From Escherichia coli (lineage in GTDB: Bacteria > Pseudomonadota > Gammaproteobacteria > Enterobacterales > Enterobacteriaceae), in the NCBI RefSeq assembly GCF_030013205.1, contig NZ_CP122648.1: a stretch of DNA of 64,000 nt. One strand, given 5' to 3'. The notes beneath the pieces were generated by a model that saw only the letters and a program-made list of their open reading frames with translations, did no database searches and was not told the origin of the DNA. A program made the position numbers and the translations under genes. Positions 5,857-21,099 of the stretch are shown here, one piece after another. How positions within the stretch are numbered: the first letter of the stretch is position 1; each line of letters opens with the position of its first letter.

Positions 5857-8081
5857 TATCGTTCTGCCGTGAAAAGTGTTTGAATATCATCGCGTAACAG
5901 CTGAGCGTCGATGTAAATCCAGCTGTGAGTCATCACAGCCTGCTGCAATTGCTGCTGCATCAGCCTGACCACCGATTCATTTTGTTGACGCAGAGCCAGG
6001 CTTTCGCGTAAACGCGTCTGTAATTCCGTCAAACATGAAGCGAACTCAGCGAAAAAAGTATTCATGCCTGCCGTAACAGATTCATCGACCTGCTCTGCCA
6101 AAACTTTAGCCATTTGTTGGCAATAAAGATCGACTTCTGCGCTTAATGCTCGTTGCAACACACTGTAATCAACCGTCTCTGTCGGGGATTTCTCATTTCC
6201 CCGTCCCCAGTCGGGCTGATTCAACCAGCGCGAAAAAGTCTCACGCACAACGCCTAAACGCGTGCTCTGCTCGTCCGTTGCTTCCTGGCGCGAAATGACT
6301 TCACTGAACAGCTGGCGAGTGTTGAAGTGGGGAACTGCGCCGTGAAAAACAGGAAAATGAAACCCAGGACGAAACCCTGACTCGCTCAATTCCATTTTGA
6401 TTTGTTGCTCAATGGGGCGAATAACATCGGTTAACACCCGGCAAAGGGTGGATTCCAGCTCGGCAAAACGCAGCGTAAAGTCGCGACTGATGGTGTTCTG
6501 CGCCGTCTGTAACAGTGTCTCACAGCGGGTACGAATCTCGCTTAACGGCTCCGAATCATCCTGAAACAAGGCGGCAAACTGCGCATTCAGCGCATCTTGC
6601 TGTTGACGCAGAAAGTGGTTGGCGGAGGTCAGGGCCAGCTCGATTTCATGTTTAATCTCGCCGCTCACCTGCGCCTGATTGAGTTGCAATAGCTGCAAAC
6701 TTTCTTCGACCTGATGGATATTTTGCCGCAATTGTTCACAAGCGACGTTTAACCCGTGCGCACGAAAATCCAGGTATTCCCGCGCCTGCTGCGCGTAATT
6801 CAACAGTTTATGCACGGCAGATCGCAGAGCATACAACGAGGCGTTAGCGTAAGCGGCATGAAGCAACGCCTGAATTGGCTGGGCGAACAGCGAATCTTCC
6901 CACAACTGATCGGCAGCATGACGAATATGTTCGAGGTCAGCCAGATCGGCATGACGCCAGCGCCTGCCGAGCGCGGCATGGGCAAAATCTTCCACCCAGC
7001 GTTGTTGCTCTGGCGGTGGTAACTTACCGTTGTTGGCTAACTCATGGCGCGCCCGATTCGCCAGGTAGCCCCACATCGACGACACCGGAAATATCTGCTG
7101 TGGCGTAATACAGCCTTTCATCAGCGTCCCGGAAATCAGTGCCCGCACCTGGTCGGCGTCGTCACTGTTACGATCCTGTTGATCGAACTTATTGACCAGC
7201 ACATACAGCGGCACCGATTGCCCCACCGCCAAAATCGCCTCACGGACCTCTTCATCGGAGATCGATTTCAGTTGCGTATAATCCAGCACCGCCAGTACCG
7301 CCGAGGCGCGTGCCAGCTGCTGGTTAAGCATTTTTTGCAGATGCGGTTGCCCGGCTTCATTTGGCCCGGGGGTATCCAGTAACGTCAATTGACCGGGATA
7401 ACTCTCCAGCCCCGCCAGATGGACAAACTCCACTTCAATCACGGGAATATGCTCAATGGCGGCGTAAGCAGAAAAAGGAAAATCGACGTCCAGCGCCTTC
7501 GCCAGTCGCACCAAATCATTCAAACTTTTCAGACAATGAAAAATAGGCTGGGCACCCAGATAATATTTTTCGAAAGCGACGCCATTTTCGATCCGCTGCA
7601 TAAGCGCACGCATATCTTTATCTATTTCCAGCACATCGGTCAGATGCTTAATATCGCAATCACGCAGGCGCTGTTGTAATTTTTGAATTAAACAATCGAT
7701 TGGCGCGACATGTGAAAAATGCAGTACCGGTTCCTTTTGCCCGGGCGTATGGCGAATAAGCGTCGGCAGCGCAGTCATTGGGCGATTACGATTAGGCAAA
7801 ACCTCCGTACCAACAATGGCATTAATGGTGGTTGATTTCCCTGCTTTCATGGTACCGACAATCGCCAGCACCATTTCCAGTCGGGAAATTTTACGCAACT
7901 CATTATTCAGCATCGCGTGACGTTCGGCGATATTAGGCTGACTCCAGGGTAAAGCCAGTTGTGGCGCATCGTCTCCGGGGACAGAGAGAGGCATTTTTTC
8001 CAGTAACTGCAACTGTTGGCGAGAAAGCTGTAACAGGCGTTCAGCCTCCTGACTTAACTCATACAGGGTCTGTGTGTACAT
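5853..8081 (-). CDS. crfC: Dynamin-like GTPase CrfC (YjdA)
   Basis: ORF 5853-8123 minus; P-loop GTPase motif (GTMKAGKSTTINAIVG); true start taken as ATG at 8079-8081 (MYTQTLYELSQ...) giving 742 aa, preceded by AAGGAAG; the track's further 14 codons upstream run into IS1. Confidence 0.9.
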   Translation of the reverse strand: MYTQTLYELSQEAERLLQLSRQQLQLLEKMPLSVPGDDAPQLALPWSQPNIAERHAMLNNELRKISRLEMVLAIVGTMKAGKSTTINAIVGTEVLPNRNRPMTALPTLIRHTPGQKEPVLHFSHVAPIDCLIQKLQQRLRDCDIKHLTDVLEIDKDMRALMQRIENGVAFEKYYLGAQPIFHCLKSLNDLVRLAKALDVDFPFSAYAAIEHIPVIEVEFVHLAGLESYPGQLTLLDTPGPNEAGQPHLQKMLNQQLARASAVLAVLDYTQLKSISDEEVREAILAVGQSVPLYVLVNKFDQQDRNSDDADQVRALISGTLMKGCITPQQIFPVSSMWGYLANRARHELANNGKLPPPEQQRWVEDFAHAALGRRWRHADLADLEHIRHAADQLWEDSLFAQPIQALLHAAYANASLYALRSAVHKLLNYAQQAREYLDFRAHGLNVACEQLRQNIHQVEESLQLLQLNQAQVSGEIKHEIELALTSANHFLRQQQDALNAQFAALFQDDSEPLSEIRTRCETLLQTAQNTISRDFTLRFAELESTLCRVLTDVIRPIEQQIKMELSESGFRPGFHFPVFHGAVPHFNTRQLFSEVISRQEATDEQSTRLGVVRETFSRWLNQPDWGRGNEKSPTETVDYSVLQRALSAEVDLYCQQMAKVLAEQVDESVTAGMNTFFAEFASCLTELQTRLRESLALRQQNESVVRLMQQQLQQAVMTHSWIYIDAQLLRDDIQTLFTAERY

Positions 8082-8164
8082 AGAAAATTCTTCCTTAAAG
8101 CAAATTTTGGGTGATGCTGCCAACTTACTGATTTAGTGTATGATGGTGTTTTTGAGGTGCTCCA

Positions 8165-8440
8165 GTGGCTTCTGTTTCTATCAGCTGTCCCTCCTGTTCA
8201 GCTACTGACGGGGTGGTGCGTAACGGCAAAAGCACCGCCGGACATCAGCGCTATCTCTGCTCTCACTGCCGTAAAACATGGCAACTACAGTTCACTTACG
8301 CCGCCTCTCAGCCCGGTACGCACCAGAAAATCATTGATATGGCCATGAATGGCGTCGGATGTCGCGCCAGTGCACGCATTATTGGCGTTGGCCTCAACAC
8401 GATTTTCCGCCACTTAAAAAACTCAGGCCGCAGTCGGTAA
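8165..8440 (+). CDS. insA: IS1 InsA (transposition inhibitor / N-terminal part of transposase)
   Basis: 91-aa [46 protein letters not shown]... (zinc finger plus HTH), a few substitutions relative to the K-12 IS1 InsA I recall. Confidence 0.92.
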
Positions 8441-8862
8441 CCTCGCGCATACAACCGGGCAGTGATGTGATTGTCTGCGCTGAAATGGACGAACAGTGGG
8501 GCTACGTCGGTGCTAAATCACGTCAGCGCTGGCTGTTTTACGCGTATGACAGGATGCGGAGGACGGTTGTGGCGCACGTCTTCGGTGAACGCACTCTGGC
8601 CACACTGGAGCGTCTTCTGAGCCTGCTGTCGGCCTTTGAGGTCGTGGTATGGATGACGGATGGCTGGCCGCTGTATGAATCACGCCTGAAGGGAAAGCTG
8701 CACGTTATCAGCAAGCGTTATACTCAGCGCATTGAGCGGCATAACCTGAATCTGAGACAACATCTGGCAAGGCTGGGACGGAAGTCACTGTCGTTCTCAA
8801 AATCGGTGGAGCTGCATGACAAGGTCATCGGGCATTATCTGAACATAAAACACTATCAGTAA
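8359..8862 (+). CDS. insB: IS1 InsB reading frame (expressed as InsAB' transposase by -1 frameshift at A6C motif)
   Basis: 167-aa ORF in -1 frame relative to insA; ...WPQHDF...[44 protein letters not shown]...; slippery TTAAAAAACTC at ~8414-8424 inside overlap. Confidence 0.88.
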
Positions 8863-9754: not shown

Positions 9755-10198
9755 ATGCCGTTAAGTCCCTACCTCTCTTTTGCCGGTAACTGTGCCGACG
9801 CAATTGCTTATTATCAACGTACGTTGGGCGCTGAACTGATCTATAAAATCAGCTTCGGCGAAATGCCAAAATCAGCGCAGGACAGCGCCGAGAACTGCCC
9901 TTCCGGAATGCAATTTCCCGATACCGCCATCGCCCACGCCAATGTGCGCATTGCCGGAAGCGATATCATGATGAGCGATGCTATACCGTCAGGAAAAGCC
10001 AGCTACTCCGGCTTTACGTTAGTGCTCGATTCGCAACAGGTCGAAGAAGGGAAACGCTGGTTTGACAATCTTGCCGCCAACGGAAAAATCGAAATGGCCT
10101 GGCAGGAAACTTTCTGGGCGCATGGCTTCGGCAAAGTCACCGATAAATTTGGCGTACCGTGGATGATTAATGTCGTCAAACAACAACCAACGCAATAA
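9755..10198 (+). CDS. yjdN: Glyoxalase/VOC-family protein YjdN (PhnB)
   Basis: 147-aa ORF MPLSPYLSFAGNCADAIAYYQRTLGAEL...; position between yjdM and phnC. Confidence 0.88.
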   Translation: MPLSPYLSFAGNCADAIAYYQRTLGAELIYKISFGEMPKSAQDSAENCPSGMQFPDTAIAHANVRIAGSDIMMSDAIPSGKASYSGFTLVLDSQQVEEGKRWFDNLAANGKIEMAWQETFWAHGFGKVTDKFGVPWMINVVKQQPTQ

Positions 10199-10254
10199 TC
10201 CGCCGGGAGGCCCGCCCTCCCGCACTGTCATCGAATTCCCGTTAACTCTTCATC

Positions 10255-10292
10255 TGTTAGTCACTTTTAATTAACCAAATCGTCACAATAAT
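10255..10292 (+). promoter_or_regulatory. Pho box region of the phnC promoter
   Basis: CTGTTAGTCACTTTTAATTAACCAAATCGTCACAATAA: tandem CTGTnA-like 7-bp direct repeats spaced ~11 bp, about 40-75 bp upstream of phnC ATG; matches the PhoB-dependent phn promoter architecture. Confidence 0.6.
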
Positions 10293-10330
10293 CCGCCACG
10301 ATGGAGCCACTTTTTTAGGGAGGCTGCATC

Positions 10331-11119
10331 ATGCAAACGATTATCCGTGTCGAGAAGCTCGCCAAAACCTTCAATCAGCATCAGGCGCTGCACGCGGTTG
10401 ATCTGAACATTCATCACGGTGAAATGGTGGCTCTGCTTGGGCCGTCGGGTTCCGGCAAATCCACCCTTTTACGTCACTTAAGCGGTTTGATTACCGGCGA
10501 TAAATCTGCCGGTAGCCATATCGAGCTGCTGGGTCGCACAGTCCAGCGCGAAGGCCGCCTGGCCCGCGATATCCGCAAAAGCCGCGCCAACACCGGCTAC
10601 ATCTTCCAACAATTCAACCTGGTGAATCGCCTGAGCGTACTGGAGAACGTGCTGATTGGCGCGCTCGGCAGCACGCCATTCTGGCGCACCTGTTTTAGCT
10701 ACTTCACCCGCGAGCAGAAACAACGCGCGTTACAGGCGCTGACCCGCGTTGGCATGGTGCATTTTGCCCATCAGCGCGTTTCCACCCTCTCCGGCGGGCA
10801 ACAGCAGCGTGTGGCGATTGCCCGCGCGCTGATGCAGCAGGCGAAGGTGATTCTGGCGGACGAACCCATCGCCTCGCTGGACCCGGAATCAGCGCGCATC
10901 GTGATGGACACCCTGCGCGACATCAACCAGAACGACGGCATTACCGTGGTCGTCACGCTGCATCAGGTGGATTACGCCCTGCGCTACTGCGAACGCATCG
11001 TCGCCCTGCGCCAGGGGCACGTCTTCTACGACGGCAGCAGCCAACAGTTTGATAACGAACGCTTTGATCATCTCTATCGCAGCATCAACCGCGTCGAAGA
11101 GAACGCGAAAGCTGCCTGA
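10331..11119 (+). CDS. phnC: Phosphonate ABC transporter ATP-binding protein PhnC
   Basis: 262 aa, Walker [10 protein letters not shown], signature LSGGQQQR, Walker B ILADEP. Confidence 0.95.
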
Positions 11120-11143
11120 CATCCCCATCATTGAGGAAAACGA

Positions 11144-12160
11144 ATGAACGCTAAGATAATTGCCTCGCTGGCCTTCACCAGCATGTTCAGCCTCAGCACC
11201 CTGTTAAGCCCGGCGCACGCCGAAGAGCAGGAAAAGGCGTTGAATTTCGGCATTATTTCAACGGAATCACAGCAAAACCTGAAACCGCAATGGACGCCGT
11301 TCTTGCAGGATATGGAGAAGAAGCTGGGCGTGAAGGTCAACGCCTTCTTTGCCCCGGACTACGCGGGCATTATCCAGGGGATGCGCTTCAATAAAGTGGA
11401 TATCGCCTGGTACGGCAATCTGTCGGCGATGGAAGCGGTGGATCGCGCCAACGGTCAGGTCTTCGCCCAGACGGTCGCGGCGGATGGATCGCCGGGTTAC
11501 TGGAGCGTGTTGATCGTCAACAAAGATAGTCCGATCAACAACCTGAACGATCTGCTGGCGAAGCGGAAAGATCTCACCTTCGGCAATGGCGATCCTAACT
11601 CCACCTCTGGCTTCCTCGTCCCCGGTTACTACGTCTTTGCCAAAAACAATATCTCCGCCAGCGACTTCAAACGCACCGTCAACGCCGGGCATGAAACCAA
11701 CGCGCTGGCCGTCGCCAACAAGCAGGTGGATGTGGCGACCAACAACACCGAAAACCTCGACAAGCTGAAAACCTCCGCGCCAGAGAAGCTGAAAGAACTG
11801 AAGGTGATCTGGAAGTCGCCGCTGATCCCAGGCGATCCGATCGTCTGGCGCAAAAATCTGTCCGAAACCACCAAAGACAAGATCTACGACTTCTTTATGA
11901 ACTACGGCAAAACGCCGGAAGAGAAAGCGGTGCTGGAGCGCCTGGGCTGGGCCCCGTTCCGCGCCTCCAGCGACCTGCAACTGGTGCCGATTCGCCAGCT
12001 CGCACTGTTTAAAGAGATGCAGGGCGTGAAAAGCAATAAAGGGCTGAATGAGCAGGACAAGCTGGCAAAAACTAGCGCCATTCAGGCGCAGCTGGATGAC
12101 CTGGACCGCCTGAACAACGCGTTAAGCGCGATGAGTTCGGTGAGTAAAGCGGTGCAGTAA
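11144..12160 (+). CDS. phnD: Phosphonate ABC transporter periplasmic binding protein PhnD
   Basis: 338 aa with signal peptide (MNAKIIASLAFTSMFSLSTLLSPAHA); follows phnC by 24 bp. Confidence 0.95.
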   Translation: MNAKIIASLAFTSMFSLSTLLSPAHAEEQEKALNFGIISTESQQNLKPQWTPFLQDMEKKLGVKVNAFFAPDYAGIIQGMRFNKVDIAWYGNLSAMEAVDRANGQVFAQTVAADGSPGYWSVLIVNKDSPINNLNDLLAKRKDLTFGNGDPNSTSGFLVPGYYVFAKNNISASDFKRTVNAGHETNALAVANKQVDVATNNTENLDKLKTSAPEKLKELKVIWKSPLIPGDPIVWRKNLSETTKDKIYDFFMNYGKTPEEKAVLERLGWAPFRASSDLQLVPIRQLALFKEMQGVKSNKGLNEQDKLAKTSAIQAQLDDLDRLNNALSAMSSVSKAVQ

Positions 12161-12175
12161 TGTGCTCGATCGGTC

Positions 12176-12196
12176 CCCTCTCCCACAGGGAGAGGG
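12176..12196 (+). other. GC-rich intercistronic hairpin between phnD and phnE
   Basis: ccctctccc-aca-gggagaggg (9-bp perfect stem, 3-nt loop) 16 nt after phnD stop, 25 nt before phnE ATG. Confidence 0.5.
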
Positions 12197-12220
12197 AGAA
12201 AACATTAAACGGAGCAATAT

Positions 12221-13000
12221 ATGCAAACCATCACCATCGCCCCACCCAAGCGCAGCTGGTTCTCGCTTCTGAGCTGGGCCATTGTTCTCGCCGTGCTGGT
12301 CGTCTCGTGGCAGGGCGCGGAAATGGCCCCGCTCACGCTGATTAAAGACGGCGGCAACATGGCAACCTTCGCCGCCGACTTCTTCCCGCCCGATTTCAGC
12401 CAGTGGCAGGATTACCTCACCGAAATGGCCGTCACGCTGCAAATCGCCGTCTGGGGCACCGCGCTGGCGGTGGTTCTCTCCATCCCCTTCGGTCTGATGA
12501 GCGCCGAAAACCTGGTGCCGTGGTGGGTTTACCAGCCCGTACGCCGCCTGATGGACGCCTGCCGCGCCATTAACGAAATGGTCTTCGCCATGCTGTTCGT
12601 GGTCGCCGTTGGCCTTGGCCCGTTCGCTGGCGTGCTGGCGCTGTTTATCCACACCACCGGCGTGCTCTCCAAACTGCTTTCCGAAGCGGTAGAAGCAATT
12701 GAACCCGGCCCGGTGGAAGGTATTCGCGCCACCGGTGCCAACAAGCTCGAAGAGATCCTCTACGGCGTGCTGCCGCAGGTGATGCCGCTGCTGATCTCCT
12801 ACTCCCTCTATCGCTTCGAATCCAACGTCCGTTCGGCCACCGTTGTTGGCATGGTCGGCGCTGGCGGGATCGGCGTCACCCTGTGGGAAGCGATTCGCGG
12901 TTTCCAGTTCCAGCAAACCTGCGCCCTGATGGTGCTGATTATCGTCACGGTCAGCCTGCTGGATTTCCTCTCTCAACGGTTGCGTAAGCACTTTATCTGA
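12221..13000 (+). CDS. phnE: Phosphonate ABC transporter permease PhnE (apparently intact)
   Basis: Uninterrupted 259-aa ORF with multiple hydrophobic segments and the permease EAA-like region; no frameshift visible. Confidence 0.9.
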
Positions 13001-13020
13001 TAAGCGAGGCATTGATATCT

Positions 13021-13746
13021 ATGCACTTGTCTACACATCCGACCAGCTACCCAACACGCTATCAGGAGATAGCCGCAAAACTTGAGCAGGAGCTTCGTCA
13101 ACACTACCGCTGCGGCGACTATCTTCCCGCCGAGCAGCAACTGGCGGCGCGCTTTGAGGTGAACCGCCACACCCTGCGCCGCGCCATCGACCAACTGGTG
13201 GAAAAAGGCTGGGTACAGCGCCGTCAGGGCGTCGGCGTGCTGGTGCTGATGCGCCCGTTCGATTACCCGCTCAACGCCCAGGCGCGTTTTAGCCAGAACC
13301 TGCTGGATCAGGGCAGCCATCCCACCAGCGAAAAACTGCTGTCTGTGCTGCGCCCGGCCTCCGGTCACGTCGCTGACGCGCTGGGGATAACCGAGGGCGA
13401 GAACGTTATCCACCTGCGCACCCTGCGCCGGGTCAACGGCGTCGCGCTCTGTTTAATCGACCACTACTTTGCGGACCTCACCCTCTGGCCGACGCTGCAA
13501 CGCTTCGACAGCGGCTCGCTGCACGATTTTCTGCGCGAGCAAACGGGGATTGCGCTGCGCCGCAGCCAGACGCGGATCAGCGCCCGCCGCGCCCAGGCCA
13601 AAGAGTGCCAGCGTCTTGAAATCCCGAATATGTCGCCGCTGCTGTGCGTGCGCACCCTTAACCACCGTGACGGTGAAAGCAGCCCGGCGGAGTACTCCGT
13701 CAGCCTGACGCGCGCCGACATGATTGAATTCACTATGGAGCACTGA
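13021..13746 (+). CDS. phnF: GntR-family transcriptional regulator PhnF
   Basis: 241 aa from ATG 13021 (MHLSTHPTSYPTRYQEIAAKLEQ...), N-terminal GntR HTH, C-terminal UTRA-like domain. Confidence 0.93.
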   Translation: MHLSTHPTSYPTRYQEIAAKLEQELRQHYRCGDYLPAEQQLAARFEVNRHTLRRAIDQLVEKGWVQRRQGVGVLVLMRPFDYPLNAQARFSQNLLDQGSHPTSEKLLSVLRPASGHVADALGITEGENVIHLRTLRRVNGVALCLIDHYFADLTLWPTLQRFDSGSLHDFLREQTGIALRRSQTRISARRAQAKECQRLEIPNMSPLLCVRTLNHRDGESSPAEYSVSLTRADMIEFTMEH

Positions 13747-14199
13747 ATGCACGCAGATACCGCGACCCGCCAGCACTGGATGTCCGTACTGGCACACAGC
13801 CAACCGGCTGAACTGGCAGCCCGCCTGAAGGCGCTGAACATCACTGCCGACTATGAAGTAATCCGCGCCGCTGAAACCGGCCTGGTGCAGATTCAGGCGC
13901 GGATGGGTGGCACCGGCGAACGCTTTTTTGCTGGCGACGCCACGCTCACCCGCGCCACCGTACGCCTGACTGACGGCACGCTCGGCTACAGCTGGGTGCT
14001 GGGGCGCGACAAACAGCACGCCGAACGCTGCGCGCTGATTGACGCGCTGATGCAGCAAACCCGCCATTTTCAAAACTTATCAGAAACCCTTATTGCCCCG
14101 CTGGACGCTGACCGTATGGCACGCATTGCCGCACGCCAGGCCGAAGTGAACGCCAGCCGGGTCGACTTCTTTACGATGGTTCGCGGAGATAACGCATGA
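13747..14199 (+). CDS. phnG: C-P lyase core complex subunit PhnG
   Basis: 150 aa ORF immediately after phnF stop; operon position. Confidence 0.93.
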
Positions 14200-14780
14200 C
14201 CCTGGAAACCGCTTTTATGCTTCCTGTGCAGGATGCCCAGCACAGTTTTCGTCGCCTGTTAAAAGCCATGAGCGAGCCGGGCGTGATTGTCGCCCTGCAT
14301 CAGCTCAAACGCGGCTGGCAGCCGCTGAATATCGCCACCACCAGCGTGCTGCTGACGCTGGCCGATAACGACACGCCGGTGTGGCTTTCTGCGCCATTAA
14401 GTAACGATATCGTCAGCCAGAGCCTGCGTTTTTATACCAACGCGCCGCTGGTCAATCAGCCGGAACTGGCGACCTTCGCGGTAACGGATGAGGCGATTTC
14501 CAGCGAACAGCTTAACGCCCTTTCCAGCGGCACCGCTGTTGCGCCAGAAGCGGGCGCGACGCTGATTTTACAGGTCGTCAGCCTGAGCGGCGGGCGCATG
14601 CTGCGCCTTACTGGCGCGGGTATTGCCGAAGAACGAATGATCGCTCCGCAGCTGCCGGAGTGCATTCTGCACGAACTTACCGAGCGCCCGCACCCGTTCC
14701 CGCTCGGCATCGACCTGATCCTGACCTGCGGCGAGCGCCTGCTGGCTATCCCGCGAACCACTCATGTGGAGGTGTGCTGA
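14196..14780 (+). CDS. phnH: C-P lyase core complex subunit PhnH
   Basis: 194 aa; ATGA overlap with phnG stop. Confidence 0.93.
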
Positions 14781-15844
14781 TGTACGTTGCCGTGAAAGGG
14801 GGCGAAAAGGCGATCGACGCCGCCCACGCCCTGCAAGAGAGCCGACGCCGGGGCAATACCGATTTGCCTGAACTGAGCGTCGCCCAGATTGAACAGCAGC
14901 TTAATCTTGCAGTAGATCGCGTGATGACCGAAGGCGGCATTGCCGACCGCGAACTGGCGGCGCTGGCGCTGAAACAGGCCAGCGGCGATAACGTCGAAGC
15001 GATTTTCCTGCTACGCGCCTACCGCACCACGCTGGCGAAGCTGGCGGTAAGCGAGCCGCTCGACACCACCGGGATGCGTCTCGAACGGCGTATTTCAGCG
15101 GTTTATAAAGATATTCCCGGCGGCCAGCTGCTTGGCCCAACCTACGACTACACCCATCGCCTGCTCGATTTCACCCTGCTGGCAAACGGCGAAGCGCCGA
15201 CGCTGACCACAGCCGACAGCGAACAACAGCCGTCGCCGCACGTTTTCAGCCTGCTGGCGCGTCAGGGGCTGGCGAAGTTTGAAGAAGATAGCGGCGCACA
15301 GCCGGACGACATCACCCGCACGCCGCCGGTTTACCCCTGCTCACGCTCCTCCCGCCTGCAACAATTAATGCGCGGCGACGAAGGCTATTTGCTGGCGCTG
15401 GCCTACTCCACCCAGCGTGGTTACGGGCGCAATCACCCGTTCGCGGGCGAGATCCGCAGTGGCTATATCGACGTGTCTATTGTGCCGGAAGAGCTGGGAT
15501 TTGCGGTGAACGTCGGCGAACTGCTGATGACCGAATGTGAAATGGTCAACGGTTTTATCGACCCGCCGGATGAGCCGCCGCACTTCACGCGCGGCTACGG
15601 GCTGGTGTTCGGCATGAGCGAGCGCAAAGCGATGGCGATGGCGCTGGTTGACCGCGCTCTACAAGCCCCGGAGTACGGCGAGCACGCGACAGGCCCGGCG
15701 CAGGATGAAGAGTTCGTGCTGGCGCATGCCGACAACGTCGAAGCCGCAGGCTTTGTCTCGCACCTTAAACTCCCGCACTACGTCGATTTCCAGGCCGAAC
15801 TGGAGCTACTCAAACGTCTGCAACAGGAGCAGAACCATGGCTAA
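14780..15844 (+). CDS. phnI: C-P lyase subunit PhnI (ribosyl transferase/nucleosidase)
   Basis: 354 aa from ATG 14780 ([13 protein letters not shown]...) overlapping phnH stop; track ORF 14660-15844 is an upstream extension in the same frame. Confidence 0.93.
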   Translation: MYVAVKGGEKAIDAAHALQESRRRGNTDLPELSVAQIEQQLNLAVDRVMTEGGIADRELAALALKQASGDNVEAIFLLRAYRTTLAKLAVSEPLDTTGMRLERRISAVYKDIPGGQLLGPTYDYTHRLLDFTLLANGEAPTLTTADSEQQPSPHVFSLLARQGLAKFEEDSGAQPDDITRTPPVYPCSRSSRLQQLMRGDEGYLLALAYSTQRGYGRNHPFAGEIRSGYIDVSIVPEELGFAVNVGELLMTECEMVNGFIDPPDEPPHFTRGYGLVFGMSERKAMAMALVDRALQAPEYGEHATGPAQDEEFVLAHADNVEAAGFVSHLKLPHYVDFQAELELLKRLQQEQNHG

Positions 15845-16682
15845 TCTGAGCGGCTACAACTTTGCCTACCTCGACGAGCAGACCAAGCGCATGATCCGCC
15901 GCGCCATCTTAAAAGCGGTGGCGATCCCCGGTTATCAGGTGCCGTTTGGCGGGCGCGAGATGCCGATGCCGTACGGCTGGGGAACTGGTGGTATCCAGCT
16001 TACCGCCAGCGTGATTGGCGAAAGCGACGTGTTGAAGGTGATTGACCAGGGTGCGGATGACACCACCAACGCCGTATCAATTCGCAACTTCTTTAAGCGC
16101 GTGACCGGGGTAAACACCACTGAACGTACGGACGATGCGACGCTTATCCAGACGCGCCACCGCATCCCCGAAACGCCGCTGACCGAAGATCAGATCATTA
16201 TTTTCCAGGTGCCGATCCCCGAACCGCTGCGCTTTATCGAGCCGCGCGAAACGGAGACCCGCACTATGCACGCGCTGGAGGAGTACGGCGTGATGCAGGT
16301 GAAGCTGTATGAAGATATCGCCCGCTTCGGTCATATCGCCACCACCTATGCCTATCCGGTGAAGGTGAACGGGCGCTACGTGATGGACCCGTCGCCGATC
16401 CCGAAATTCGATAACCCAAAAATGGACATGATGCCCGCCCTGCAGCTGTTCGGCGCAGGACGCGAGAAGCGCATCTATGCGGTGCCGCCGTTTACCCGCG
16501 TGGAAAGCCTCGATTTCGACGATCACCCGTTCACCGTTCAACAGTGGGATGAGCCGTGCGCCATCTGCGGATCGACCCACAGCTATCTCGACGAAGTGGT
16601 ACTGGATGACGCCGGAAACCGCATGTTTGTCTGCTCCGATACCGATTATTGCCGCCAACAGAGCGAGGCGAAAAGCCAATGA
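15837..16682 (+). CDS. phnJ: C-P lyase PhnJ (radical/Fe-S C-P bond cleaving subunit)
   Basis: 281 aa from ATG 15837 (MANLSGYNFAYLDEQTKRMIRR...); C-terminal Cys cluster CAICGS...FVCSDTDYC; 8-nt overlap with phnI. Confidence 0.93.
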   Translation: MANLSGYNFAYLDEQTKRMIRRAILKAVAIPGYQVPFGGREMPMPYGWGTGGIQLTASVIGESDVLKVIDQGADDTTNAVSIRNFFKRVTGVNTTERTDDATLIQTRHRIPETPLTEDQIIIFQVPIPEPLRFIEPRETETRTMHALEEYGVMQVKLYEDIARFGHIATTYAYPVKVNGRYVMDPSPIPKFDNPKMDMMPALQLFGAGREKRIYAVPPFTRVESLDFDDHPFTVQQWDEPCAICGSTHSYLDEVVLDDAGNRMFVCSDTDYCRQQSEAKSQ

Positions 16683-17437
16683 ATCAACCGTTACTTTCGG
16701 TCAATAACCTGACCCACCTTTACGCGCCGGGCAAAGGCTTTAGCGATGTCTCTTTTGATTTATGGCCGGGGGAAGTGCTGGGCATCGTCGGGGAATCCGG
16801 CTCCGGGAAGACCACGCTGCTGAAATCAATCTCCGCGCGCCTGACGCCGCAGCAGGGGGAGATTCGCTATGAAAACCGCTCCCTCTATGGCATGAGCGAG
16901 GCCGACCGCCGTCGCCTGCTGCGCACCGAATGGGGCGTGGTGCATCAGCATCCGCTCGACGGCCTGCGCCGCCAGGTGTCGGCAGGCGGCAATATCGGCG
17001 AGCGGCTGATGGCGACCGGGGCGCGTCATTACGGCGATATTCGCGCCACCGCGCAGAAGTGGCTGGAGGAGGTGGAGATTCCCTCCAACCGGATCGACGA
17101 CCTGCCGACCACCTTTTCCGGCGGTATGCAGCAACGTTTGCAGATTGCCCGCAACCTGGTGACGCATCCGAAGCTGGTGTTTATGGACGAGCCAACCGGC
17201 GGGCTGGATGTATCGGTACAGGCGCGCCTGCTCGATCTGCTGCGCGGTCTGGTGGTGGAGCTGAATCTGGCGGTGGTGATTGTCACCCACGATCTGGGCG
17301 TCGCCCGCCTGCTGGCGGACCGTTTGCTGGTGATGAAACAGGGGCAAGTGGTGGAGAGTGGGTTAACCGACCGCGTGCTCGACGACCCGCATCATCCGTA
17401 TACCCAGCTGCTGGTGTCATCGGTTTTGCAGAATTGA
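16679..17437 (+). CDS. phnK: C-P lyase system ATPase PhnK (ABC-type ATP-binding)
   Basis: 252 aa from ATG 16679 ([15 protein letters not shown]...), Walker [10 protein letters not shown]; ATGA overlap with phnJ stop. Confidence 0.93.
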
Positions 17438-17443
17438 GCCAGT

Positions 17444-17528
17444 GCCGGATACGGCGTAAACGCCTTATCCGGCCGACAAATGCGCTCCCCGTAGGTCGGA
17501 TAAGACGCGTCAGCGTCGCATCCGACAC
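17444..17528. repeat. Intra-operonic REP pair (BIME) between phnK and phnL
   Basis: gccggatacggcgtaaacgccttatccggc ... ggtcggataagacgcgtcagcgtcgcatccgacac; two REP palindromes in the 110-bp phnK-phnL gap. Confidence 0.65.
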
Positions 17529-17547
17529 CCGAACCACGAGGCGAAAA

Positions 17548-18228
17548 ATGATTAACGTACAAAACGTCAGTAAAACCTTCATCCTGCACCAGCAAAACGG
17601 CGTGCGCCTGCACGTCTTACAACGTGCCTCGCTCACCGTCAACGCAGGCGAATGCGTGGTACTCCACGGCCACTCCGGCAGTGGAAAATCAACCCTGCTA
17701 CGCTCGCTGTACGCCAACTATCTGCCCGATGAAGGTCAAATCCAGATCAAACACGGTGATGAGTGGGTAGACCTGATCACCGCGCCAGCCCGCAAAGTGG
17801 TGGAGATCCGCAAAACCACCATCGGCTGGGTGAGCCAGTTTCTGCGCGTCATCCCGCGTATTTCGGCACTGGAAGTGGTGATGCAGCCTCTGCTCGATAC
17901 CGGCGTACCGCGTGAAGCCTGCGCCGCTAAAGCCGCGCGTCTGCTCACCCGCCTGAACGTGCCTGAACGCCTGTGGCACCTGGCACCATCGACCTTCTCC
18001 GGCGGCGAACAGCAGCGCGTCAACATCGCCCGTGGCTTTATCGTCGACTATCCGATTCTGCTGCTCGACGAACCTACCGCCTCGCTGGACGCTAAAAACA
18101 GCGCCGCCGTAGTGGAACTGATCCGCGAAGCCAAAGCCCGCGGCGCGGCCATCGTCGGTATCTTCCATGACGAAGCCGTACGCAATGACGTCGCCGACCG
18201 CCTGCACCCGATGGGAGCCTCTTCATGA
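17548..18228 (+). CDS. phnL: C-P lyase system ATPase PhnL (ABC-type ATP-binding)
   Basis: 226 aa from ATG 17548 ([16 protein letters not shown]...), Walker [21 protein letters not shown]. Confidence 0.93.
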
Positions 18229-19361
18229 TTATCAATAACGTCAAACTGGTGCTGGAAAATGAAGTGGTGCACGGTTCACTGGAAGTACAGGATGGCGAAA
18301 TTCGCGCCTTTGCCGAAAGCCAGAGCCGCCAGCCGGAAGCGATGGACGGTGAAGGTGGCTGGCTACTGCCCGGACTGATTGAGCTGCATACCGACAACCT
18401 CGATAAATTCTTCACCCCGCGCCCGAAAGTCGACTGGCCCGCCCATTCGGCGATGAGCAGCCACGACGCGCTGATGGTGGCAAGCGGCATCACCACCGTA
18501 CTGGACGCCGTGGCGATTGGTGATGTGCGCGACGGCGGCGATCGGCTGGAGAATCTGGAGAAGATGATCAACGCCATCGAAGAGACGCAGAAACGCGGCG
18601 TCAACCGCGCCGAGCACCGCCTGCACCTGCGCTGCGAACTGCCGCACCACACCACGTTGCCGCTGTTTGAAAAACTGGTGCAGCGCGAACCGGTGACGCT
18701 GGTATCGCTGATGGACCACTCGCCAGGCCAGCGCCAGTTCGCCAATCGCGAGAAGTATCGCGAATATTATCAGGGCAAATACTCGCTCACCGATGTGCAG
18801 ATGCAGCAGTACGAAGAGGAACAGCTGGCGCTTGCCGCACGCTGGTCACAGCCGAATCGCGAATCCATCGCCGCCCTGTGCCGCGCGCGACAAATTGCGC
18901 TCGCCAGCCATGATGACGCCACGCACGCACACGTTGCCGAATCCCACCAGCTTGGCAGCGTGATCGCCGAATTTCCCACCACGTTCGAAGCGGCACAAGC
19001 CTCGCGCAAGCATGGCATGAACGTGCTGATGGGCGCGCCGAATATCGTGCGCGGCGGTTCGCACTCCGGCAACGTGGCGGCCAGTGAACTGGCGCAGCTT
19101 GGCCTGCTGGATATCCTCTCTTCCGACTACTACCCCGCCAGCCTGCTCGATGCGGCATTTCGCGTCGCCGATGACGAGAGCAACCGCTTTACGCTGCCGC
19201 AGGCGGTGAAGCTGGTGACTAAAAATCCGGCGCAGGCGCTTAATCTTCAGGATCGCGGAGTGATTGGCGAGGGCAAACGCGCCGACCTGGTGCTGGCGCA
19301 TCGCAAGGGCAACCACATTCATATCGACCACGTCTGGCGTCAGGGTAAAAGGGTGTTCTGA
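18225..19361 (+). CDS. phnM: PhnM, amidohydrolase-family RPnTP diphosphatase
   Basis: 378 aa; metal-dependent hydrolase fold motifs; ATGA overlap with phnL. Confidence 0.93.
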
Positions 19362-19918
19362 TGACGGGAAAACTGATTTGGTTAATGGGGGCCTCTGGCT
19401 CCGGAAAAGACAGTCTGTTGACGGAACTCCGCCAGCGGGAACAAACTCAGCTACTGGTAGCGCATCGCTACATCACGCGCGCCGCCAGCGCCGGAAGTGA
19501 AAATCATATCGCCCTGAGCGAGCAGGAGTTTTTTACCCGCGCGGGGCAGAACCTTCTGGCCTTAAGCTGGCACGCCAACGGCCTGTATTATGGCATCGGC
19601 GTCGAGATTGACCTCTGGCTGCACGCTGGATTTGACGTGGTGGTCAACGGCTCACGCGCCCATCTGCCGCAGGCGCGGGCGCGCTATCAATCGGCGCTGC
19701 TGCCCATTTGCTTACAGGTTTCGCTGGAGATCCTGCGCCAGCGCCTGGAAAACCGTGGCCGTGAAAACGCAAGTGAAATTAACGCCCGGCTGGCGCGCGC
19801 CGCCCGCTATACTCCTCAGGATTGTCTTACGCTCAATAATGACGGCAGCCTGCGCCAGTCGGTCGACACGCTGCTGACGCTGATTCATCAGAAGGAGAAA
19901 CACCATGCCTGCTTGTGA
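19361..19918 (+). CDS. phnN: Ribose 1,5-bisphosphate phosphokinase PhnN
   Basis: 185 aa, P-loop GASGSGKDS; start overlaps phnM stop. Confidence 0.93.
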
Positions 19919-20339
19919 GCTTCGCCCGGCCACGCAGTACGATACCGACGCAGTTTACGCGCTGATTTGTGAGCTAAAACAGGCGGAGTTTGACCACCAC
20001 GCGTTTCGCGTGGGCTTTAACGCCAACCTGCGCGACCCGAACATGCGCTACCATCTGGCGCTGCTGGATGGCGAAGTTGTCGGCATGATCGGCCTGCATT
20101 TGCAGTTTCATCTGCATCATGTCAACTGGATCGGCGAAATTCAGGAATTGGTGGTGATGCCGCAGGCGCGCGGTCTGAATGTCGGCAGTAAATTACTGGC
20201 ATGGGCAGAAGAAGAAGCCCGCCAGGCCGGGGCCGAAATGACCGAGCTTTCCACCAACGTCAAGCGCCACGACGCGCACCGTTTCTATCTGCGCGAAGGC
20301 TATGAGCAGAGCCACTTCCGCTTCACCAAGGCGCTGTAA
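19905..20339 (+). CDS. phnO: Aminoalkylphosphonate N-acetyltransferase PhnO (GNAT)
   Basis: 144 aa GNAT-like ORF overlapping phnN 3' end by 14 nt. Confidence 0.92.
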
Positions 20340-20340
20340 C

Positions 20341-21099
20341 ATGAGCCTGACCCTCACACTTACTGGCACTGGCGGCGCACAGGGCGTTCCCGCATGGGGC
20401 TGTGAGTGCGTGGCCTGCGTCAGAGCGCGGCGCTCACCGCAGTATCGCCGCCAGCCATGCAGCGGCGTCGTGAAGTTTAACGACGCGATCACCCTGATCG
20501 ACGCCGGGCTGCACGATCTCGCCGATCGCTGGTCGCCCGGATCGTTCCAGCAGTTTTTGCTGACGCACTACCATATGGATCACGTGCAGGGGCTGTTTCC
20601 GCTGCGCTGGGGCGTGGGCGATTCGATCCCGATCTACGGCCCGCCGGATGAACAGGGCTGCGACGATCTGTTTAAACATCCGGGCCTGCTTGATTTCAGC
20701 CACACGATGGAACCGTTTGTGGTGTTTGATTTACAGGGGTTACAGGTCACGCCCCTGCCGCTCAACCACTCAAAACTGACCTTCGGTTATCTGCTGGAAA
20801 CGGCACATAGCCGGGTGGCGTGGCTGTCTGACACCGCAGGCCTACCGGAAAAAACGCTGAAATTTTTACGCAATAATCAACCGCAGGTGATGGTGATTGA
20901 TTGCAGCCACCCACCGCGCGAGGATGCACCGCGTAATCACTGTGATTTAAATACCGTGCTTGCGCTGAATGAAGTTATCCGCTCGCCGCGCGTGGTTCTG
21001 ACCCATATCAGCCATCAGTTTGATGCGTGGCTGATGGAGAACTTACTGCCGTCAGGGTTTGAGGCGGGGTTTGATGGGATGGAGATTGGGGTGGCGTGA
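20341..21099 (+). CDS. phnP: Phosphoribosyl 1,2-cyclic phosphate phosphodiesterase PhnP (metallo-beta-lactamase fold)
   Basis: 252 aa from ATG 20341 ([15 protein letters not shown]...), HYHMDH metal-binding motif; 1 nt after phnO stop. Confidence 0.93.

Follow-up and report, generated by a model that had tools for sequence, protein, structure and literature searches.

The phosphonate permease gene phnE lies in the Escherichia coli DNA analysed here (the window, 64,000 nucleotides of contig NZ_CP122648.1), and the question it raises is whether the gene is in its functional or its frameshifted, cryptic state and what that state says about phosphonate use and strain background. The difference in phnE between E. 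coli K-12 and E. coli B has been textbook matter since 1991. In K-12 the PhnCDE transporter is cryptic owing to an 8-bp insertion in phnE (Stasi et al., 2019; PMC6469041), a finding for which both PMC6469041 and PMC4759930 cite Makino et al. (1991) and Iqbal et al. (2004). Phn+ revertants of K-12 arise readily under phosphate limitation by loss of 8 bp (PMC6469041, PMC4759930), dropping 5′-GCTGGCGT at positions 407-414 of the phnE ORF (PMC6469041), and this deletion has been ascribed to high-frequency slippage between direct repeats (Moreau and Loiseau, 2016; PMC4759930). Transduction of the phnE+ allele of BL21 into MG1655 gave a working PhnCDE transporter that also imported orthophosphate (PMC6469041). 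Reversible switching of phnE is reported for K-12 only (Iqbal et al., 2004; Guillemet and Moreau, 2012; cited in PMC6469041 and PMC4759930). An intact phnE with two copies of the repeat is the common and long-described state of the gene (Makino et al., 1991; Iqbal et al., 2004; Stasi et al., 2019).

The phnE reading frame

The features of the window needed to read phnE are as follows.

10331..11119 (+), phnC, ATP-binding subunit, 262 aa, full length
11144..12160 (+), phnD, periplasmic phosphonate-binding protein, 338 aa, full length
12211..12214 (+), GGAG, ribosome-binding site of phnE read from the sequence, six bases 5′ of the ATG
12221..13000 (+), phnE, uninterrupted ORF of 259 codons with an ATG start, membrane permease subunit of the PhnCDE phosphonate/phosphate ABC importer
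12683..12787 (+), EAA-type loop of PhnE, codons 155-189, 35 residues, motif read in the translation
13021..13746 (+), phnF, GntR-type regulator, 241 aa, protein identical to that of K-12
12122..13012 (−), antisense ORF, 296 aa with an ATG start, covering the whole of phnE

The initial annotation had placed a single uninterrupted 259-codon phnE between phnD and phnF, and this was borne out by the ORF listing and by profile searches. The product scores 311.3 bits (cut-off 216.7) with TIGR01097, the NCBIfam PhnE equivalog, its residues 16-258 aligning end to end with positions 8-251 of the 252 in the profile, and residues 88-258 carry the PF00528 BPD_transp_1 permease domain (91.8 bits against 26.4). 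Within the latter match an EAA-type motif (...LP) begins at residue 155. Such a cytoplasmic loop is the contact between the permeases of ABC importers and their ATPase. The gene adjoins phnC and phnD in a contiguous plus-strand C-P lyase operon (10331-21099), and it is annotated as WP_001193496.1 in the identical genome of ETEC1748 (see below).

The antisense ORF is longer than phnE, starts with ATG and contains no stop within the window, such that it could be argued that it is the real gene and the plus-strand ORF incidental. The chance of this is negligible and the antisense ORF was rejected as a gene, Pfam giving no hit to it at a threshold as loose as E≤1, while the plus-frame product aligns with the PhnE profile from end to end. 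The 21 nucleotide differences between the window and BL21 in phnE are equally telling, 20 of them falling at third codon positions and changing one amino acid of PhnE (I21V), against 19 amino-acid changes in the antisense frame, which in BL21 is also broken by a stop. The GC content of the plus frame is highest at codon position 3 (0.79). By profile match, codon-position bias and substitution pattern alike the plus-strand ORF at 12221-13000 is the real coding frame and not a chance ORF, and the antisense ORF, which is not conserved, is the shadow ORF of a gene rich in GC3. The almost entirely synonymous nature of the phnE substitutions indicates purifying selection.

The start of phnE is annotated differently in MG1655, in which the phnE1 pseudogene begins 51 nt 5′ of the ATG common to all intact alleles. 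The 17 codons added in this way (MPDAVQAPYPAYRPEPN) come from translation of a REP element, and the corresponding stretch of the window (12170-12220) has an in-frame TAA at 12206 that excludes a 51-nt 5′ extension. Both PGAP and the window sequence support the 259-aa start, and phnE should be annotated from 12221 with a product of 259 aa.

The 8-bp repeat tract

12626..12641 (+), phnE slippage tract of two tandem 8-bp units, GCTGGCGT GCTGGCGC, identified by alignment with MG1655 and beginning at codon 136

The initial annotation had named a small duplication as the cause of the K-12 frameshift and had proposed alignment with MG1655 phnE to locate it. Alignment to the MG1655 reference (NC_000913.3, phnE at 4322443-4323281, positions 10444-11282 of the MG1655 segment compared, annotated as a pseudogene) revealed an extra 8-bp tandem unit in K-12 and placed the indel at 12626-12641, with the tract reading GCTGGCGT-GCTGGCGT-GCTGGCGC in MG1655 and GCTGGCGT-GCTGGCGC in the window. 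The 8-bp gap at this GCTGGCGY tract is the sole length difference between the window and MG1655 inside the phnE coding region. When MG1655 phnE is translated from the shared ATG, the third unit causes a frameshift at about codon 141, after ...PFAGVLA, followed by several premature stops, whereas in silico removal of one unit restores a 259-aa protein differing from that of the window only by I21V. The K-12 cryptic allele (phn(EcoK); b4583/b4104 pseudogene) is the same gene at the same locus with the same repeat tract, differing in having three units (+8 bp) and a frame lost after residue ~141. The cryptic state, in which three GCTGGCGY copies accompany a frameshift, is absent from the window, where two copies lie in an open frame.

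The closest described functional allele is that of E. coli B, phn(EcoB). In BL21(DE3) phnE (WP_001193500.1) is an intact 780-bp ORF in the same operon position, its two GCTGGCGY units likewise at offset nt 406, and its product matches that of the window at 258 of 259 amino acids; the two alleles are nonetheless distinct, the 21 nucleotide differences noted above including I21V.

The likely consequence of copy number follows the layout of the protein. PhnE would form the integral-membrane subunit of a PhnC2-PhnE2-PhnD importer of phosphonate (and phosphate), and two 8-bp copies, spanning codons 136-141, represent the in-frame ON state. Both the EAA-type loop and the last hydrophobic segment are encoded 3′ of the tract and are absent from the three-copy product, such that a third copy, by shifting the frame after residue ~141, is predicted to remove the loop and the C-terminal membrane segments and thereby abolish phosphonate uptake although the C-P lyase is intact. 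By analogy with what is reported in K-12, replication slippage would be able to add a unit to the two-copy tract of the window and so switch phnE OFF.

Strain background

The intact phnE had also been offered by the initial annotation as a sign of a non-K-12 background, together with differences in IS1 and ssb. The background was correctly called, yet phnE is a poor guide to it. An intact gene is weak evidence for a non-K-12 origin because the 8 bp are easily lost in revertants of K-12 and wild isolates carry the frameshift, which in being present in 1009 of 5426 genomes (see below) is not specific to K-12. A K-12 derivative that had reverted to phnE+ through loss of one 8-bp unit would show the same two-copy tract as the window, and such revertants easily arise under phosphate limitation (PMC6469041, PMC4759930). 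This origin was nevertheless rejected, as scarcely conceivable, on divergence from MG1655 and on an exact match to pig ETEC genomes. Every phn gene differs from MG1655 at 2-7% of its nucleotides, the phnD-phnE spacer is unlike that of MG1655 and the IS1 of the window is absent from MG1655. In turn positions 1-44239 of the window are base for base identical to pig enterotoxigenic E. coli (ETEC) strain ETEC1748 (NZ_CP122719.1, 4595762-4640000). Searches with phnE and with 25 kb surrounding it both find their best matches exclusively in pig ETEC/O139:H1 genomes, at 100% identity, most E. coli being 95-99% identical. The 44 kb shared with ETEC1748, set beside 93-98% nucleotide identity to MG1655, mark a background that is not K-12, as judged by divergence from K-12 and not by the intact phnE alone.

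The IS1 and ssb differences are both real and both unrelated to phnE. An IS1-family element (about 8064-8862, transposase CDS 8165-8862 (+)) lies in the crfC-yjdM intergenic region, a site that carries no such element in MG1655 or BL21, and leaves the phnC promoter untouched. The ssb gene (about 60125-60631 (−); 507 nt, 168 aa) carries an in-frame 30-nt deletion at about 60242 that removes WGQPQQPQGG from the Gly/Gln-rich linker, as seen by comparison with the ETEC1748 genome, which is identical but for this and has an SSB of 178 aa. Direct repeats CCGCCCTGCGGCTG flank the deletion, which makes it another slippage-type in-frame polymorphism. Elsewhere in the window, at about 51700-53000 (positions 7474-8766 of the segment compared from the matching genome) between actP and yjcE, the annotation of the matching genome places the pentapeptide-repeat T3SS effector EspX5.

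Integrity of the phn operon

10254..10286 (+), candidate Pho-box region of the phnC promoter, within a 131-nt stretch directly 5′ of phnC that is identical to MG1655
13747..21099 (+), phnGHIJKLMNOP, C-P lyase core and accessory enzymes, ten genes of K-12 length with no internal stops
12175..12197 (+; stems and loop at 12176-12196), perfect hairpin with a 9-bp stem, CCCTCTCCC ACA GGGAGAGGG, in the 60-nt phnD-phnE spacer (12161-12220)

All 14 genes from phnC to phnP start with ATG, lack internal stops and have the length of their MG1655 counterparts, from which they differ with 93.4-97.7% nucleotide identity gene by gene and 0-10 amino-acid differences per protein, those of PhnG-PhnP numbering 1-10 each. 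The PGAP annotation of ETEC1748 likewise gives phnC-phnP as 14 intact CDS at the exact coordinates of the window with no pseudogene flags. The sequence at 10254-10286 we take to be the PhoB-binding site (Pho box) of the phnC promoter; Makino and co-workers are said to have described the phnC Pho box as a PhoB-binding site in 1991. With all 14 genes full length and the phnC promoter region that of MG1655, a PhoB-inducible and functional pathway for phosphonate uptake and C-P lyase cleavage is a sound and reasonable inference, and the strain would be expected to grow on alkylphosphonates under phosphate limitation.

An intact ORF might still sit in a non-functional pathway if a missense or regulatory defect lay elsewhere. 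Candidate lesions would be I21V in PhnE, changes in PhnH, PhnM, PhnN and PhnP, each some 7-10 residues off K-12 (identical at 187/195, 371/379, 176/186 and 242/253 aligned positions, respectively), and the altered phnD-phnE spacer, which differs from the spacers of the operons characterised in K-12 and B. Such a defect is improbable, since the differences are those of ordinary polymorphism between lineages at 93-98% nucleotide identity, free of indels and stops. The phnE allele of the window is moreover fixed in many pig ETEC genomes, its substitutions bear the mark of purifying selection, the spacer type is present in about 1300 genomes and the phnC promoter is unchanged from MG1655.

Taken on these sequence comparisons, the reading preferred here is that the window encodes a full-length wild-type PhnE in the in-frame two-copy ON state, within a complete PhoB-controlled operon of a non-K-12 E. 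coli that is identical here to genomes of the pig ETEC/O139:H1 type, a reading to which we would assign a probability of about 0.93.

The phnD-phnE spacer is polymorphic in E. coli. Where the window has its 60-nt spacer with a hairpin of another kind, a 105-nt REP-type spacer stands in MG1655 and BL21. The RNA fold of the window hairpin has a predicted energy of −24 kcal/mol (z = −3.6), and an Rfam search of 10000-13500, taking in the operon leader and the phnD-phnE spacer, gave no match at E≤1. The window-type spacer is found in 1315 of 5426 genomes at ≥80% query coverage, some with an extra insert of about 65 nt. The substitution of a hairpin for the REP could change the ratio of phnD to phnE expression, and if the hairpin acts like the REP elements that follow genes for binding proteins (malE-malF) it may make the phnCD message 5′ of it more stable. 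In some genomes, those of O111 strains among them, a 43-nt core of the window spacer is also present at other sites that carry no annotation, and it may be a small repeated element.

Natural variation in phnE copy number

The alleles of phnE were typed with short queries over 5426 complete E. coli genomes, the query coverage separating the copy numbers. A 34-nt query that is seeded only by genomes with at least three copies identified 1009 of the 5426 (~19%), and a 64-nt three-copy query was fully covered in 1012. The two-copy query had full coverage in 3053 genomes and 66% coverage, the signature of three copies, in about 1010. The figure of 3053 two-copy genomes is a lower bound, about 1360 genomes remaining unmatched probably through flanking SNPs that break the 28-mer seed. 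No one-copy (−8 bp) allele was found among the 5426 genomes with a query that needs conserved flanks and that rare variants may escape.

The three-copy allele is not confined to the laboratory. In an evenly spaced sample of 60 three-copy genomes roughly one-third were K-12 or laboratory derivatives, the remainder, with genomes of 4.7-5.4 Mb, having been isolated from humans, from animals (pigs, chickens, ducks, dogs and cattle) and from seawater and wastewater. In six wild three-copy isolates PGAP labels a 788-bp phnE 'frameshifted', and over about 2 kb of phnD-phnF these differ from MG1655 by 0-2 substitutions, compared with 32 for BL21. The tract of TB4328 (NZ_AP038823.1), an isolate from chicken meat, has four GCTGGCGY units (positions 993-1024 of the TB4328 segment compared) within a 796-bp frameshifted pseudogene, indicating that the tract expands further in nature, and this allele too lies on a K-12-like haplotype, 0-2 substitutions from MG1655 in about 2 kb. 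The presence of the frameshifted allele in about one in five complete genomes, together with its four-copy derivative, leads to the conclusion that cryptic phnE, as typed from these assemblies, is a natural polymorphism and not a peculiarity of K-12.

The haplotype on which the frameshift sits bears on how it has spread. The phnE haplotype of MG1655 is common to many wild isolates (0-2 substitutions per 2 kb) and is not that of the window, and no three-copy allele was seen on a different haplotype among the six wild three-copy genomes and the single four-copy genome, a small sample. From the sharing of one haplotype within that sample, the OFF allele looks to be largely one inherited haplotype and not the product of many independent slippage events.

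In some respects phnE resembles a contingency locus. It has an intragenic tandem repeat whose 8-bp unit is not a multiple of three, and its copy number is polymorphic among natural strains (2, 3 and 4), as at phase-variable simple-sequence loci. It differs from these in that its tract is just two or three units long, in that the sampled wild three-copy genomes share one local haplotype and in that no one-copy allele was found. The proposal that the 8-bp tract is a natural contingency switch, with OFF as a stably inherited haplotype in ~19% of genomes and the window as the ON state of a maintained polymorphism, is accordingly put forward only tentatively and is, in our estimation, rather unlikely.

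Implications for phosphonate use

What the comparison adds is of modest interest, namely that the frameshifted 'K-12' allele of phnE is common in nature, is carried on essentially one haplotype and has a four-copy derivative. Were the tract indeed a maintained switch, a cost of PhnCDE, for example through the uptake of toxic phosphonates or fosfomycin-like compounds, would perhaps maintain the polymorphism. For the strain itself, its gene content predicts that it should be Phn+, taking up and cleaving alkylphosphonates, with PhnCDE giving it an additional route of phosphate import under phosphate limitation.
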